A stretch of DNA of 64,000 nucleotides from a virus (Duplodnaviria; Heunggongvirae; Uroviricota; Caudoviricetes). Shown one piece after another: positions 22,250-38,189 of the stretch. How positions within the stretch are numbered: the stretch's first letter is position 1; every line of letters begins with the position of its first letter. Location of the stretch: IMG/VR virus record IMGVR_UViG_2778261375_000003. The stretch is one strand, 5' to 3'. Under the pieces are notes generated by a model that saw nothing but the letters and a program-made list of their open reading frames with translations, did not search any database and was not told the origin of the DNA. The position numbers and the translations under genes are program-made.

Positions 22250-22563
22250 GTATTTTTAAGTCACAAATGCTATCTTTTCGCATCATATTGACCTTTTAAT
22301 CGTTCAGGCTTATAGTTCCGCCGTCGTAGCAAATTCTGCGACCGGGTTTAGCAGCCTGAATGATTGTGCGGACAGCCGCAGATATCCGATATTGCGGTAT
22401 TTTTGTGTCCGTAAAACCGTGTTACGCCCAAATTATGGTGGGGCGTGATGGGGAGGCTTCGGCCTGCTGGTTTCACAATCGCCAGTCTGCTAACCCCGTC
22501 ACGTCCTGCCACCTGTTTAGCAGCGGGTAGCAGGTTGTTAAACCTGATTGTGAGGCCGTAACT

Positions 22564-33092: not shown

Positions 33093-34094
33093 TTAAGGCT
33101 TCGGCTTTTTATCGAGGCTCTTTCTAAGGATATGCCCAATCATCCTGTCGAGTTCTTCCTGTAACTCTTTTGAGAGTCGATTAAACTCATAAGAAAATGC
33201 ACGGCCTTTCACGCGCTTCCTTGCAAAGCGATCCTTGTCCTCAAATTTCCATAATTCAGTAACTACGGACTTATCTTTAGAACCTTTATCCGTGAGTAGT
33301 GAGGCTTCCTTTGTTATCAAGCGCAGGATTTTATTTTTAACTTCATCTTCGGCCATTTCTTCAATGGATAAGATGTCGTTTATTTCCGGGGATATGTTTT
33401 GAATAAGCTGATCAAACTCTAAATTCTTGTTCCCCATTTCGTCGCCAACAGCACAAAGCGTTTTGTAGTCCGAAAAGGTTAATTCCGACTGCACAGGGAA
33501 AAGGGCGACTAATTCTTCCGGAGCACTCGCTGCCTGGAGAGCACGCGTGACCTTCGCCTGAGACAGCCCTTCTTTGGCTGCAATATCCTTCTGACTCATC
33601 CCATCATTTTTCATTCGCATCAAACGCAGACCTATTTCTCGAATGCTGTGCTGCAATGCTGTCTGAACGTCTTTCGCTAAATTTTGCGCTTCCTGAACGC
33701 TGATCTCCTGGTCCGTGACTAAAACCCGCAACCCTACGTTCTCTAAGATGGCAGAAGCTCGACGCCGGGAACCATCCAAAATTTCAATTTTCCCTGTAGC
33801 CCGTCTAACACCTATTGCAGGGTAAAATTGCTGATGCTTAATAGTGCTTCGGATACTTTTTAATGATTTTGGCGTAAGAGATGCCTGGTCACGCCCGTTG
33901 TTATGCTGATCAACAAAGGTATCGCTTTCTACCTGGTTCGGAGGTATTACCTCTTCAATAAATGTGGCCTGGCGACCAGTTGATAACTTGAATACCTGCT
34001 CGACTCGATCGCCAGAGGCTGAAGAACTATCAAATCCGCTTAATATTGAAGGATTAAGGGTTCGCCCAATTGTTGGTCTGTTTTTCTTTGACAT
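33093..34094 (-). CDS. parB: partition protein ParB
   Basis: 333 aa, ParB-like; downstream of parA and upstream of parS; length matches my recollection of P1 ParB. Confidence 0.8.
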   Translation of the reverse strand: MSKKNRPTIGRTLNPSILSGFDSSSASGDRVEQVFKLSTGRQATFIEEVIPPNQVESDTFVDQHNNGRDQASLTPKSLKSIRSTIKHQQFYPAIGVRRATGKIEILDGSRRRASAILENVGLRVLVTDQEISVQEAQNLAKDVQTALQHSIREIGLRLMRMKNDGMSQKDIAAKEGLSQAKVTRALQAASAPEELVALFPVQSELTFSDYKTLCAVGDEMGNKNLEFDQLIQNISPEINDILSIEEMAEDEVKNKILRLITKEASLLTDKGSKDKSVVTELWKFEDKDRFARKRVKGRAFSYEFNRLSKELQEELDRMIGHILRKSLDKKPKP

Positions 34095-34110
34095 GGGGGT
34101 TTCTTACTCC

Positions 34111-35307
34111 TCAGTTAGATCTGATAAATTCAATACGGTCAAAAACTGCTTTAGCAAAATCTTCCGCAGCAATTCGCGCGTTCTTCAATGCATCAGCACT
34201 ACCAACATACGTTGCCGGGTTAGCTGAAATAACAGTGTCAAAAGACTCGCCGCAGCGTTCAAAACCGTCAAGGCGAGGGAGGACAACATCAAGCATATCC
34301 CCACCGAACACTTCTTTAGCCAGGCTATGGCAATACTTATGGTCTGCCTTGTTACTCAACTTGGACATAAAACCAATGTTAGTTGCAAGCTGACACTCGC
34401 AGCCTTCATCCGAAATGAGTTTCACCAACTCAGGAAGGCGGGCAACGTATTTAAGCGATGAGTGGAAATCAACCGTTGCAGGCGGCAGAGGTGTAAACAG
34501 TATATTGGCCGAGGCCAAAGCATTTTTCAGGAAGGCGTCAAGGTGAGGACCACTATCAACGAGGATAAAGTCATAATCGCTCTTCAGCTTATCAATCACA
34601 TTTTCTTTCAGGACTGCATGGATGTTCTGACCCGGTAGATGCTCATTGCACAGCTCTCTCCAATCGGATGCAATAAAGGCATCGTCAATCGACGCAGGCA
34701 TAACGTCAACCCCAGGTACAACAGAAGGAACAATAAACTCCTCTAACAGCTCTTCACGGCTTACATTCTGCAACATAGCCTGTGCAGATGTTGCGTTTAC
34801 GATACCAATAGAGTGTTTATGGCTTAAAAACATCGTTGCTGAAGATTGCGGATCAAGGTCAATAACCAGAATCCTTAAATCTTCCATCAGAAGATGAGGG
34901 TGGGCACGCATTGCATGCGCCAGAGAAACCGTCGATACAGTTTTTGACACACCGCCTTTAAGATTGGAGATGAAAATCACATACGCTTCGCTGTAGCGAT
35001 CCCGGTATTTTGGCACTCCGCGATGTTCATATATGTCAATGATGTTCTGAATTGACATCGCATATTTCATTGAAGAGCCAGCAGGGCGTTTATCGAAAAC
35101 ATAACCCTTTTCTTCCATTTCACTTACGGCATAGTCAACGTTCGCTCGAGTCAGTAGAGGCAATTTTGCCAGTGCCGCTTTCGCATAGACCTGGTAAAAC
35201 TCGTTCGCGTGTAGCTCATCCTTTTGCAACTGTACTTGTTCAGTCAGAACATTGAGCATTCTGTTTGCTCTTTGAGCAACCTTGTGAAGCTGGCTGGAAT
35301 CACTCAT
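34111..35307 (-). CDS. parA: partition ATPase ParA (type Ia, N-terminal HTH extension)
   Basis: 398 aa; deviant Walker A KGGVSKT; N-terminal extension; length matches my recollection of P1 ParA. Confidence 0.85.
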   Translation of the reverse strand: MSDSSQLHKVAQRANRMLNVLTEQVQLQKDELHANEFYQVYAKAALAKLPLLTRANVDYAVSEMEEKGYVFDKRPAGSSMKYAMSIQNIIDIYEHRGVPKYRDRYSEAYVIFISNLKGGVSKTVSTVSLAHAMRAHPHLLMEDLRILVIDLDPQSSATMFLSHKHSIGIVNATSAQAMLQNVSREELLEEFIVPSVVPGVDVMPASIDDAFIASDWRELCNEHLPGQNIHAVLKENVIDKLKSDYDFILVDSGPHLDAFLKNALASANILFTPLPPATVDFHSSLKYVARLPELVKLISDEGCECQLATNIGFMSKLSNKADHKYCHSLAKEVFGGDMLDVVLPRLDGFERCGESFDTVISANPATYVGSADALKNARIAAEDFAKAVFDRIEFIRSN

Positions 35308-35475: not shown

Positions 35476-36285
35476 TTATTTGCTAAGAGCAGCGAATAAT
35501 CGTTCGAAATCGATAGTATCTATAGCACGCGTAAGCGCCGGAAGTTCAGCCTCAAAGTACCCGTGTCGATCGTAAAAGAAGGGACCGAAGAGCGAGGCAT
35601 GTTGGATTCTACTTCGCCCCAGCCCGGACACACAGTTAAGCCCATTACCGGCTAAAAGGCTAAAAAACTTCTCTGGATTATCGTGGTAAAGCTGGGAATC
35701 AATGGTGGCGGTTAACTCTTCCATAGGGAAGCACACCCGCCCTGTATCCCAGGGATATTTAGTCCGAAGCATAAACATTGCTTTCAGCAATTCACATTGA
35801 GCGCGGATCGCGTCCGGTTCATAGCCAGATATGGAGACATAAGCCACGTCCCTCATTCCTGCGTCATCTTTGAAAGTCACGATAGAAGTAACATCCAGCT
35901 CTTTTTCGAAAGAGCAAGCAGCATCTACTGGACGCTGAAGTAAATCATTCGACTTAATGCGCTCGAGAATCCCTCCCCACATATCATTTAGATATTCGAT
36001 ATGAGCCAAAACCTTATCAAGACACTCTCGTGTAAACCATTCAGTATGCCCGCCACCGACGCTTTTCTCCCACGGCGCATTCCAGGGGAAAAAGGTTGCG
36101 TGTAAAGCCCGCTCAAGATTAACCATTGCCAAACGTGTACCACGATAGACCCGTGAAAGCGCAAAATCGGGACTCACTTGTAGCCCTTTAAACCGTGCCA
36201 ATGGACCACATGAAATGCCGATTTTAAAAGTATCTCCGTTCTCTGGCACCAGAACGTAGAGGTAGTGTTGTTTCTCTTCTTGCAT
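35476..36285 (-). CDS. GIY-YIG / T5orf172-like domain protein
   Basis: N-terminus HYLYVLVPENGDTFKIGIS...GGHTEWF resembles the GIY-YIG/T5orf172 motif; 170-aa C-terminal extension of unknown function; sits between parA and the repA iterons. Confidence 0.5.
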   Translation of the reverse strand: MQEEKQHYLYVLVPENGDTFKIGISCGPLARFKGLQVSPDFALSRVYRGTRLAMVNLERALHATFFPWNAPWEKSVGGGHTEWFTRECLDKVLAHIEYLNDMWGGILERIKSNDLLQRPVDAACSFEKELDVTSIVTFKDDAGMRDVAYVSISGYEPDAIRAQCELLKAMFMLRTKYPWDTGRVCFPMEELTATIDSQLYHDNPEKFFSLLAGNGLNCVSGLGRSRIQHASLFGPFFYDRHGYFEAELPALTRAIDTIDFERLFAALSK

Positions 36286-36319
36286 ATCAATACCACTGCT
36301 TGATGAGAACCGCGCAAAT

Positions 36320-36577
36320 GTTGACTATGCGCGAAGGTTAATGTGAATAGTTGACTATGCGCGATGTGACTACAGTCAAAAGTTGACTGTAGTCGATTTA
36401 ACTCCACCAAAGATCGACTATGTAAGATATTGTCGGGAGAAACGTTGACTATACGCGATGAAATGACCCTAAAAACCATCTCAATAGCGACTTGAAGAAT
36501 ATTGACTCCAGCAAAAATCCACCAGCGTCAATGAATGTCGCCTATAGTCAACTTCTCGCTATCGCATATAGTCAATA
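36320..36577. repeat. incA-like iteron array downstream of repA
   Basis: At least eight copies of TTGACTATGCGCGA-type repeats in both orientations. Confidence 0.6.
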
Positions 36578-37462
36578 TTATGGATTGCGCTTATGGATCT
36601 GGAAGCCGATTTTCCTGCCGTTTTTTATCTCTGAAAATTTAAGATATTCAATAGCTTCTAAATCTTTCATGGCTTTTCTGATAACGCTATTTTGCACGCT
36701 AACGGATGATTTGAGATTAAGCCTTGCTCTAAGGCGCTCAATGCTGACAGGTGCAGGGTTGGCGGGTAGAGCCTCAAAGAATGTATACAGTACCTTGGCC
36801 GTCTCTTTGCGCCCGAGCTTATCCAGCATCTTCAGCTTCAGGATTCGCTTATAGTCAACATAGTAAAGTTCAGATAGCTGTTTCTGCGGCTGGATCTCGA
36901 TAACATCAAGCTCGGTATTCAGGCTGCTATATGCCAACAAGTTGACGTTAATGTTATTGAGATGACCTTTTGCCGCCGGGAAGCGGAATTTGACAACTGT
37001 CTGCTGAATGCGTGTCAGAGAATCATCAATACTTTTACGGAACGCCTTTGAAAGGCGCTTACGTGGATAGCCGCATCGATCGGCAAACTCGGAGAATGGC
37101 AGGGTGATTATACCGTCATCATCAGGTGCGTAGTCAAACAACGCGGAGGTTATGCCCACCCACACCTTAAAATCAGTATCCATATCCAGGCGTGGACCAT
37201 GAATTTCAATTCCCTCATAGCCTTCCTGCTCAACAATTTTGAGGCTTGATAGTTCTTCGGTTGCGTTCGTTGTGTTTGTAGTAACTGACGATCCGCGACG
37301 TAGTGCCACATTGGTAGATTTTAAGGTTGGCACAAACACACCTAAGCGCAACAAAGCGATGGGTTGTATAGTGCTATTGTTATTGGGTTTCAGGCTGTGG
37401 ATTTCTCCTGTATTTCCAGCAACTTCTTCAACGCTAAGGAAGCCTTTATTTTCTTCCGGCAT
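36578..37462 (-). CDS. repA: iteron-binding replication initiator RepA
   Basis: 294-aa ORF flanked by iterons on both sides; RepFIB/P1 RepA-like organisation. Confidence 0.75.
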   Translation of the reverse strand: MPEENKGFLSVEEVAGNTGEIHSLKPNNNSTIQPIALLRLGVFVPTLKSTNVALRRGSSVTTNTTNATEELSSLKIVEQEGYEGIEIHGPRLDMDTDFKVWVGITSALFDYAPDDDGIITLPFSEFADRCGYPRKRLSKAFRKSIDDSLTRIQQTVVKFRFPAAKGHLNNINVNLLAYSSLNTELDVIEIQPQKQLSELYYVDYKRILKLKMLDKLGRKETAKVLYTFFEALPANPAPVSIERLRARLNLKSSVSVQNSVIRKAMKDLEAIEYLKFSEIKNGRKIGFQIHKRNP

Positions 37463-37540
37463 CGTGGTTTCTCCATATGTGGCGCGGCCTGGCGTTAATT
37501 TAGATGACTGTTATCAACAGCTGTGAATATTCAGGCTCTA

Positions 37541-37644
37541 AAATCGCGTACAGTCAACGTTTCTGTCGCGTATAGTCAACAATAAATCGCGTGCAGTCAA
37601 CATAAAATCGCACACAGTCAACATAAAATCGCGTATAGTCAATG
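37541..37644. repeat. five direct iterons with 21-bp periodicity (incC / oriR-like)
   Basis: AAATCGCGTA(C/T)AGTCAAC(A/G) repeated five times with exact 21-bp spacing, immediately upstream of repA. Confidence 0.7.
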
Positions 37645-37683
37645 TTGATCCCGTTTCAGGCCATGAACGGCGCGGCTTACAGC

Positions 37684-37754
37684 GATCCGGGATCTTCTTT
37701 GGATCTTCCTAGGTTCTCTTTGGGATCTGTTTATTGGATCTATGCTGTGGATAA
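37684..37754. promoter_or_regulatory. origin region: GATC cluster plus DnaA box
   Basis: Five GATC sites within about 55 bp in GGATCT-type repeats, then TGTGGATAA (DnaA box) at 37746-37754. Confidence 0.55.
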
Positions 37755-37796
37755 GTTGAATAAACCGGCCAACATAGCCGGTTGGAAGGAAGGGTA

Positions 37797-38189
37797 TTAT
37801 TCTACGCTTTCGATAAGAAGACCATGTTCATAACATTTAAGCTCATCGCCTTCGTACAGGAATTGGTATCCAATACCACCATATTCAGGCACATTAGGGA
37901 ATAACTCATCACTTACCGAAGAACAAATCACACCAATGCAGCGATCAACGCCTTCTCGTTCTTCAGTGCTGAAAAAATCCTCTTCGGTAAGAACATGAGT
38001 ACATTGCTCATCAGCATAGGTCGGAAATACATGCTCGATGCAATCCGGGTGTTTTAAACCAAGCTGATCGGCAAGCTCGAAAGCATGACGGTATTGTTCA
38101 GATCCTGGCTTGCCAACAGTGATGTGCTCAATTTTGTAGATTGAAGTCGCTTTGTTGATAGTTTGCTTTACTGTTACTTTATCAGACAT
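37797..38189 (-). CDS. hypothetical protein
   Basis: 130-aa ORF followed by a hairpin at about 37765-37790. Confidence 0.4.
   Translation of the reverse strand: MSDKVTVKQTINKATSIYKIEHITVGKPGSEQYRHAFELADQLGLKHPDCIEHVFPTYADEQCTHVLTEEDFFSTEEREGVDRCIGVICSSVSDELFPNVPEYGGIGYQFLYEGDELKCYEHGLLIESVE

Follow-up and report, generated by a model that had tools for sequence, protein, structure and literature searches.

The window analyzed here, a 64,000-nucleotide stretch of a tailed-phage genome, carries a plasmid-type replicon centered on the initiator gene repA (36578-37462, minus strand). Because repA lies on the minus strand, "upstream" of the gene means higher coordinates. Its ATG is preceded by GGAG, and its 294-aa product is a Rep_3-class initiator with tandem winged-helix domains (WH1-WH2) that is predicted to bind iterons. 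RepA aligns with its P1 counterpart over the full length at 41% identity (BLASTP, E 2e-71) and is 44-49% identical to the RepA proteins of IncFIB plasmids. Pfam recognizes Rep3_C (27.3 bits; cut-off 21.1) and, marginally, Rep3_N, whose 22.0 bits fall just below the gathering score of 22.4; the protein is assigned to phrog_775, while neither NCBIfam nor a PDB sequence search yielded a match. An AlphaFold model (pLDDT 74) matched RctB, RepE, pi and pPS10 RepA in Foldseek (E 2.5e-6 to 1e-3), with the good match confined to the WH1 domain (TM 0.61-0.64, normalized to the target) and low whole-chain TM-scores of 0.3-0.4 against the solved initiators. RepA is thus homologous to the P1 and RepFIB initiators and has the tandem winged-helix fold of the Rep_3 class. 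It belongs to a cluster of 381 sequences at 100% identity, and a protein search for its relatives returned none between 85% and 53% identity.

Upstream of repA lies an array equivalent to the incC locus of P1, comprising five direct 21-bp iterons on the minus strand (37541-37646; starts at 37541, 37563, 37584, 37605 and 37626). The original prediction had described five direct iterons with an exact 21-bp periodicity. Their number and single orientation hold, but the starts are spaced 22/21/21/21 bp, a spacing that is identical in P1, in the relative CP042620 and in a metagenomic relative (L009). The iteron consensus is AATGTTGACTATACGCGATTT, and the TTGACTRTRNGCGA sites of the replicon are the predicted targets of RepA. 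Scored with a position matrix, the incC iterons reach 25-33 bits; the lowest of the twelve canonical iterons in the replicon scores 25 bits, compared with at most 11.7 bits in the remaining 62 kb of the window and a maximum of 13.2 bits in shuffled sequence. Every incC unit contains a TTGACT motif that matches five of the six positions of a -35 hexamer, though its best -10 partner at 17-19 bp matches only three of six. A scan of incC and its vicinity for a sigma-70 promoter of repA gave nothing convincing; the highest-scoring candidates match 8-9 of 12 positions with spacers of 17-19 bp. The P1 record places PrepA inside incC, within iterons 10-12 (NC_005856). Since the search found no convincing promoter here, autoregulation of repA by promoter occlusion is put forward by analogy only. 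Between incC and the repA start sit two inverted DnaA-like boxes, TTATCAACA (37511-37519, plus strand) and ATATTCACA (37522-37530, minus strand), each with one mismatch; CP042620 has a perfect TTATCCACA in the same interval.

Beyond incC lies the origin core (37684-37743, minus strand), which consists of four AGATCC[A/C] heptamers that contain GATC, one decayed heptamer slot (AGAACCT) and a GGATCG. Its GATC sites begin at 37684, 37691, 37702, 37724 and 37737, and a sixth at 37647 abuts the outermost incC iteron. The cluster of five that had been predicted is therefore real, but not all of it lies in GGATCT repeats as had been proposed: on the plus strand four of the sites do (AGATCC[A/C] on the repA strand), the fifth is CGATCC, and one repeat slot is a decayed GGTTCT. 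With six GATC, this 100 bp far exceeds the background density of 3.8 per kb (Poisson P of at least six, 3e-6 per 100-bp window), and no other 100-bp stretch of the window holds more than three. A DnaA box had also been predicted beyond the iterons, and it is present at 37746-37754, where TGTGGATAA in plus-strand letters reads on the minus strand as a perfect TTATCCACA, one of only three perfect boxes in the 64 kb. A degenerate tandem copy, TTATTCAAC (37755-37763, minus strand), adjoins it. The outer bound of the origin is formed by a terminator-like hairpin at the end of upfA, detected by a terminator scan (37769-37785, minus strand; CCAACCGGCTATGTTGG followed by a T-rich tail) and conserved in P1 by alignment.

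The origin core can be aligned with those of P1, IncFIB(K) and the IncFIB replicon of pO157, with the GATCC heptamers and the DnaA box invariant, which indicates that the layout is shared across the family. The outer DnaA box is kept in all three. Moreover, IncY, p0111 and IncFIB(K) all retain the four heptamer GATCs together with GGATCG, and the AGATCC heptamers in first and last position do not vary among the six aligned sequences, pO157 IncFIB included. In the P1 record, five Dam sites and a site for DnaA binding are annotated at the aligned positions, and iterons bound by RepA at the corresponding places (NC_005856). By homology to P1, the core GATCs would be target sites for Dam methylation and SeqA, and the core is the likely site of strand opening.

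The other side of repA carries a second set of iterons, equivalent to the incA locus of P1 (36317-36579, mixed orientation). Six canonical sites (36317+, 36347+, 36379+, 36441+, 36535- and 36559-) score 25-29 bits, and two divergent sites stand in register with them, 36410+ (5.6 bits) and 36515- (TTGACGCTGGTGGAT, 4.3 bits), giving eight sites in mixed orientation and bearing out the prediction of at least eight downstream iterons. Five of them (36317, 36347, 36379, 36410 and 36441) oppose incC. The remaining three (36515, 36535 and 36559) share its orientation, and 36559 overlaps the repA stop codon. In CP042620, which is 77% identical, the incA iterons form conserved islands among diverged or unalignable spacers; a canonical iteron occupies the position of 36410+ there and 36515- is conserved as sequence, while 36317, the outermost site, has no counterpart. 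A ninth site at about 36489-36509 (ATATTGACTCCAGC...) was rejected, being below threshold and not conserved in CP042620. The locus also contains a 12-bp perfect inverted repeat (36368-36379/36383-36394).

One further iteron lies within repA itself. This site, TATGTTGACTATAAGCGAATC (36842-36862, minus strand), spans codons 201-207, has the orientation of incC and scores 25 bits. It is retained in CP042620 and in L009, and the repA genes of P1 and IncFIB(K) have no counterpart. In the relative used for the codon comparison, which keeps the site, 52% of the repA codons that specify an unchanged amino acid are different; within the iteron, the five core codons show no synonymous change, whereas the flanking codons 198-201 and 207-208 have all changed (local probability, ~0.03). 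It is possible, if doubtful, that the intragenic iteron is a working RepA site particular to the p0111 lineage that contributes additional negative control. Were this so, it could act as a roadblock to repA transcription at high RepA concentrations, or as a handcuffing or titration partner for incC. A Providencia plasmid (L003), a relative at 53% identity, also has an iteron-like sequence inside its own repA, but it was rejected as support because it differs in position and lies in the opposite orientation.

The surroundings of these elements show that the replicon is a discrete replacement cassette in a P1-like backbone. A cassette from ~35404 to ~37790 takes the place of the IncY cassette of P1 between the par promoter and upfA, with an edge that is sharp at ~35404 and graded at ~37745-37800; identity to P1 in the flanks is 99.1% towards par and 97.7% towards upfA. 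By blastn, nothing in P1 matched the segment 35410-37668, and megablast of the replicon likewise found no match in the reference P1 genome (NC_005856). Outside the cassette, the parA-parB partition operon (33093-35307, minus strand) is 99% identical to that of P1. Inside it, between incA and the par promoter, lies a gene for a 269-aa T5orf172/GIY-YIG-like protein (35476-36285, minus strand) assigned to phrog_2876, with an additional weak match to an endonuclease family and no match in PADLOC. Being located in the segment that replaces P1 sequence and absent from P1, this gene is a passenger of the replicon cassette, and a 99% identical copy adjoins the L009 replicon. On the opposite side of the replicon, the plus-strand dmt gene (41259-43682) encodes a bifunctional methyltransferase with a C5 methylase domain and a Dam-type D12 N6-adenine domain (E 5e-57). 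Ahead of uhr-hrdC-dmt stands the C1 repressor operator Odmt, ATTGCTCTAATAAATAT (39992-40008, plus strand), base-for-base identical to that of P1.

The replicon can be placed with some precision among known types. Over 1551 bp, the replicon region matches phages RCS47, SJ46 and JL22, as well as plasmids, at 97.3-98.8% identity and full length; for oriR-repA-incA the nucleotide identity is 97.8% over 1551 bp to JL22 (ON018986.2) and 98.6% to RCS47. Near-identical copies occur in hundreds of sequenced E. coli plasmids, and ~395 plasmids in PLSDB are at least 95% identical, while a related-locus search of genome contigs returned one identical locus only. The plasmid pHum4b (NZ_OR724977, 89% identity) was dropped as a comparison, its repA being split into small ORFs, most likely through assembly errors. 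JL22 has been described as having its IncY repA replaced by a p0111-type repA', with one additional unknown gene (PMC9603915), and our assignment to p0111, a PlasmidFinder category, rests on near-identity to this typed phage. IncY, the type of P1's own replicon, was considered and rejected, as the iteron consensus is unrelated and RepA is just 41% identical to that of P1; the original prediction had not drawn this distinction. By its sequence, then, the replicon is a standard module for low-copy plasmid replication from a P1-like phage-plasmid (Punavirus), already known and catalogued as "p0111". The same two differences imply that it should be compatible with IncY, such that elements bearing p0111 would be expected to coexist with IncY P1-like elements.

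In its architecture the replicon is nonetheless of the P1 type, as originally predicted, given the homology of RepA, the same order of elements and the alignable origin core. This makes handcuffing and Dam-dependent origin function reasonable expectations. From P1 we infer RepA-iteron binding, dependence on Dam and SeqA, handcuffing and repA autoregulation, drawing on the NC_005856 annotation, on work cited in PMC2865523 and on general background on P1. Under this model, RepA monomers would bind the five incC iterons and host DnaA would bind its boxes at either end of the origin. The duplex would then open in the adjacent heptamer core, a step needing GATC methylation by host Dam, and after firing the hemimethylated core would be sequestered by SeqA. 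RepA bound to incC would cover the -35-like TTGACT motifs and so repress its own gene. Lastly, the eight incA iterons, perhaps with the intragenic one, would limit copy number both by titrating RepA and by RepA-bridged pairing with incC ("handcuffing"). Taken as a whole, we consider it very probable that the locus is a self-contained p0111-type plasmid-prophage replicon cassette, its mechanism being modeled on that of P1.

Several other readings of the same elements must be weighed against this one. The origin heptamers might have been kept only as a DNA-unwinding element or for timing by SeqA, with p0111 initiating without any need for methylation. In keeping with this, the heptamer slot that lacks GATC is slot 2 in P1 (AGGTCC) and slot 3 in the window (AGAACC), which indicates that no single GATC is indispensable; moreover, at 41% RepA identity, the replicon could depart from P1 in details such as chaperone activation or the need for Dam. 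Against it stand the conservation of the four heptamer GATCs and GGATCG in IncY, p0111 and IncFIB(K), the invariance of the end heptamers in six of six sequences, and work cited in PMC2865523 on adenine methylation as a control of P1 oriR and also of REPI, a replicon of pColV-K30. We regard a methylation-independent origin as unlikely. The downstream iterons, for their part, could be a degenerating copy of the origin iterons, or else an additional origin, with no regulatory role. Two of the eight (36410 and 36515) are degenerate or divergent here, and the outermost is unmatched in CP042620. Yet the six canonical sites match the incC sites in strength, conserved iterons amid unalignable spacers in a 77%-identical relative are a signature of selection, and P1 and IncFIB(K) keep the two-cluster layout as well; a second origin is also improbable since the downstream side has neither a GATC core nor a perfect DnaA box. 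This explanation is scarcely credible, and a regulatory, incA-like role is preferred.

A last alternative concerns the source of methylation. The original prediction had tied the replicon to a methyltransferase 4 kb away, and an ORF with a Dam-type D12 domain does exist, albeit at ~3.5 kb. If the GATC cluster were functionally coupled to the element's own dmt, this gene would supply the methylation that the origin needs. Such coupling would fit the proximity of dmt, its adenine methylase domain and the statement in the P1 record that Dmt methylates GATC. In addition, DNA packaged in the lytic cycle would, we infer, arrive premethylated, which could aid the first plasmid replication in a new host. 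However, the exact retention of the C1-controlled Odmt argues that the dmt operon is repressed in the plasmid-prophage state, which is where the origin works. The Klebsiella and pO157 IncFIB origins possess the same GATC-heptamer core with no dmt beside the origin in the loci examined, and the gene order from upfA to dmt is simply that of the P1 backbone, 97.7% identical and outside the swapped cassette. On these grounds the proposed tie is unsupported. Abeles and Austin reportedly found in 1987 that P1 replicons could not be established in dam hosts. Their experiments reportedly used mini-P1 plasmids, which lack dmt, in which case the result would bear on the origin's need for Dam and not on what a prophage dmt can supply. 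Coupling to dmt is thus held to be very unlikely, and the evidence from sequence argues that host Dam, and not dmt, methylates the origin.

The practical value of these results lies in correct annotation, as the element is a P1-like phage-plasmid with a p0111 replicon and not an IncY one. P1-like phage-plasmids are of interest as carriers of resistance genes (PMC9603915, PMC6906374). In the searchable literature on p0111 and RCS47, the replicon figures as a typing marker (repA'), with its iterons, GATC core and intragenic iteron undescribed; queries combining p0111 or RCS47 with iterons yielded nothing relevant and no experiment on this replicon type. An element-by-element map of the iterons, GATC core, DnaA boxes and cassette boundaries is absent from searchable papers, and the one given here should be an aid in building mini-replicons or incompatibility probes.

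Comparison with other systems sets these features in context. The most distant is ori2 of Vibrio cholerae with its initiator RctB, an iteron origin that has a DnaA box and relies on methylation by Dam and on sequestration by SeqA (PMC2865523, PMC6090056). Structurally, the RepA model fits RctB domains 2-3 best, but there is no detectable sequence homology, and ori2 places GATC inside the RctB iterons and employs 39-mers and crtS for negative control; it serves as an analogy only.

The RepFIB replicons are closer. IncFIB(K) has five upstream iterons spaced at 21/22 bp and a downstream cluster, as in the window, and its iteron, TGTCTACTGTATGCGA, resembles that described here. Its downstream iterons all point one way and none lies inside repA, whereas those of the window are mixed and one is intragenic. 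The RepA proteins of this group (F/P307/pColV-K30 REPI, pO157 and IncFIB(K)) are longer, at ~300-340 aa compared with 294 aa. We take REPI of pColV-K30 to be a RepFIB-type replicon. RepFIB replicons reside on conjugative plasmids, in contrast to the phage-plasmid backbone of the window.

P1 (IncY) has the same elements in the same order and orientation, from DnaA boxes through GATC heptamers, five incC iterons and repA to the incA iterons. They sit at the equivalent genomic position, with the par operon on one side and upfA on the other, and the origin core is 70-80% identical. The P1 incA is likewise built of a distal block opposing incC plus three proximal sites that run in the direction of incC, the final one overlapping the repA stop, although it has nine sites (six opposite, three same) to the eight of the window. 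The iteron consensus is GATGTGTGCTGGAGGGAAA in P1 and AATGTTGACTATACGCGATTT in the window; P1 has two tandem outer DnaA boxes where the window has one perfect and one degenerate; and the intragenic iteron and the T5orf172 gene belong to the window, neither being found in P1. The change is one of specificity, in which initiator and iterons were swapped as a unit while the host-facing part of the origin (the DnaA box and the Dam/SeqA heptamers) was retained. The p0111 phages RCS47, SJ46 and JL22 have essentially the same replicon sequence as the window, with nothing of substance different, and p0111 phage-plasmids share with it the extra gene between incA and parA.

Within the interval 36320-37754, originally predicted to hold a P1-type replicon, the sole long open reading frame is repA (36578-37462; 294 aa). 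As repA is encoded on the minus strand, "upstream of repA" corresponds to higher window coordinates. Iterons were sought with a position matrix made from the five upstream repeats and run over the window. Twelve sites scored 25-32 bits, every one within 36317-37646, while the maximum was 11.7 bits in the remaining 62 kb and 13.2 bits in a shuffled-sequence control; in their consensus, AATGTTGACTATACGCGATTT, the core TTGACT...CGA is invariant. Five form a head-to-tail array upstream of repA, the equivalent of P1 incC (starts 37541, 37563, 37584, 37605 and 37626). The anticipated five repeats in one direction are therefore present, though their spacing of 22, 21, 21 and 21 bp is nearly, rather than exactly, 21 bp. 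Past the 3' end of repA, at the position of P1 incA, we found the expected cluster of at least eight iterons in mixed orientation, comprising six canonical sites (36317, 36347, 36379 and 36441 on the plus strand; 36535 and 36559 on the minus strand, the latter overlapping the repA stop codon) and two weaker ones in register (36410, plus; 36515, minus). Five of the eight lie opposite to incC and three the same way. The two weaker sites are probably real; in CP042620, a relative whose RepA is 85% identical (nucleotide identity 77%), a canonical iteron occupies the position of 36410 and the sequence of 36515 is kept, whereas the spacers flanking the iterons are unalignable. A perfect 12-bp inverted repeat in incA (GACTACAGTCAA at 36368-36379, TTGACTGTAGTC at 36383-36394) is built from iteron 36379 and an adjoining half-iteron, and is similar to the inverted half-iteron operators bound by Rep dimers in other iteron plasmids; its conservation in CP042620 is only partial.

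Beyond the upstream array, six GATC sites (37647, 37684, 37691, 37702, 37724 and 37737) fall within 100 bp, set against a window average of 3.8 per kb; all other 100-bp stretches of the window hold at most three, and the Poisson probability of the cluster is 3e-6 per 100-bp window. The predicted cluster thus stands with its count corrected, from five sites to six, of which four sit in AGATCC[A/C] heptamers (GGATCT in plus-strand reading). The DnaA box foreseen beyond it is a perfect copy, TTATCCACA (37746-37754); two more perfect boxes occur elsewhere in the window. The origin box is adjoined by a degenerate tandem box, and two one-mismatch boxes lie between the upstream array and the repA start. 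The initial observation is confirmed, with these minor corrections.

The 1551-bp replicon region shows 97.3-98.8% full-length identity to RCS47, SJ46, JL22, phi456, several "P1" isolates and plasmids, and some 395 plasmids in PLSDB, most with E. coli as their source, are at least 95% identical to it. Megablast of the same region gave no match to the reference P1 genome (NC_005856). Both flanks are P1 backbone, with gp22, gp23, parB and parA on the par side and upfA, mlp, ppfA, upfB, upfC, uhr, hrdC and dmt on the other; by blastn, identity to P1 is 99.1% up to 35409 and 97.7% from 37669 on, with no match between these positions. RepA is 41% identical to P1 RepA, and the iteron is unrelated to the P1 iteron GATGTGTGCTGGAGGGAAA. 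JL22 is just such a case: there, a repA' of type p0111 and one unknown gene take the place of the IncY repA, p0111 having been found in 24 of 55 P1-like phage-plasmids (PMC9603915). Taken together, the divergent RepA, the unrelated iterons and the match to JL22 identify the replicon, at the level of sequence, as p0111. Both the type, which is abundant and already catalogued, and its textbook P1 architecture were known before. Elsewhere in the window, a C4 antisense RNA with its a1/b1 target (P1 immI region; 22310-22516, plus strand) and genes for tRNA-Asn, tRNA-Thr and tRNA-Met (44358-44511 and 46139-46214, plus strand) occur as in P1, confirming a Punavirus backbone.

Set against P1, the swapped region has a sharp left edge (~35404, immediately upstream of the par promoter, Ppar) and a graded right edge (~37745-37800, through the DnaA-box/GATC core), with identity of 100% past 37857, 70-80% over the GATC/DnaA core and random level in the iterons. 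These edges delimit a cassette, ~35404 to ~37790, that by alignment stands in for the IncY cassette of P1 and contains a T5orf172/GIY-YIG-like gene, incA, repA, incC and the origin core. Initiator and iterons have been exchanged as a unit, with the host-facing origin core kept at 70-80% identity, a cassette shape for which we found no description in the searchable literature. The T5orf172 gene (35476-36285, minus strand; 269 aa), between incA and the par promoter, encodes a protein with a phrog_2876 match and a weak match to an endonuclease family, and PADLOC returned no match for it. A 99% identical copy lies beside the replicon of a metagenomic relative, L009 (RepA 90%), and the gene travels with the replicon cassette.

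The original prediction also tied the replicon to a methyltransferase encoded 4 kb away. This gene is P1's dmt (41259-43682, plus strand), whose product combines Dam-type D12 and C5 methylase domains, and it lies within the conserved backbone, outside the swapped cassette. Moreover, the C1 operator of its operon, Odmt (39992-40008), is identical to that of P1, which argues for repression of the operon during lysogeny, when the p0111 origin is at work. IncFIB plasmids share the GATC core, and dmt is absent from those of their origin-flanking loci that were read. The proposed tie is therefore unsupported: the proximity of dmt to the origin is P1 gene order rather than a functional coupling, and the methylase of the origin is likely host Dam. 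The dmt frame itself spans 807 aa from a GTG start (754 aa in P1; longer still in RCS47), and ~590 bp in its middle (41980-42567) have no blastn match to P1, suggesting a replaced segment in a linker or domain region.

RepA carries a Rep3_C and a marginal Rep3_N Pfam domain, and the top structural matches of its AlphaFold model (pLDDT 74) are all iteron initiators: RctB, RepE, pi, pPS10 RepA and TrfA. By homology to P1, RepA monomers would bind incC and DnaA the flanking boxes, the Dam-methylated heptamer core would then open, and after firing the hemimethylated core would be sequestered by SeqA. RepA sitting on incC would repress repA, the weakest of these steps because promoter scans found no convincing candidate for a repA promoter, and incA would lower copy number through titration and RepA-mediated pairing with incC. 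The N-terminal motif IQPIALLRLGVFVP, which we take to be the counterpart of the segment of P1 RepA to which DnaK binding was mapped, has residues Q33, R39, L40 and F43-P45 invariant across the family; this suggests, as a lead only, chaperone activation as in P1.

A further canonical iteron, TATGTTGACTATAAGCGAATC (36842-36862, minus strand, incC orientation; 25 bits), lies inside repA itself, at codons 201-207. It is kept in CP042620 and present in L009. Between the window and CP042620 its five core codons show zero synonymous changes, and 52% of the same-amino-acid codons of repA differ. No such iteron was found in repA of P1 or of the Klebsiella IncFIB(K) replicon, nor any description of one in the searchable literature.

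The window and P1 replicons agree in layout element for element, bearing out the predicted P1-type architecture. The P1 record annotates incC as RepA-binding iterons 10-14 (spacing 22/21/21/21 bp), along with five Dam sites, a DnaA site, PrepA within incC and nine incA iterons, of which six distal ones lie opposite to incC and three proximal ones the same way, where the window has five and three. Several of these incA iterons are weak against a P1 matrix (15-18 bits, one below 10), and degenerate members are therefore normal at incA. A markedly enlarged version of the layout occurs in a locus of the Providencia plasmid pPROV083-1 (2267-3108 and 747-1167; 53% RepA identity), where ~14 tandem copies of a 43-bp repeat lie downstream of repA and an origin-like segment of ~350 bp is duplicated, each copy having iterons and GATC sites as well as a DnaA box. 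The origin core is alignable among P1 (IncY), the window, CP042620, L009, IncFIB(K) and pO157 IncFIB, with the first and last AGATCC heptamers invariant in all six and the DnaA box kept in most. As in the window, five iterons lie upstream of repA in IncFIB(K), at a spacing of 21/22 bp, and a further cluster lies downstream. As judged from these alignments, the architecture is a common trait of the P1/RepFIB RepA family, to which thousands of enterobacterial plasmids (RepA identity 44-49%) belong.
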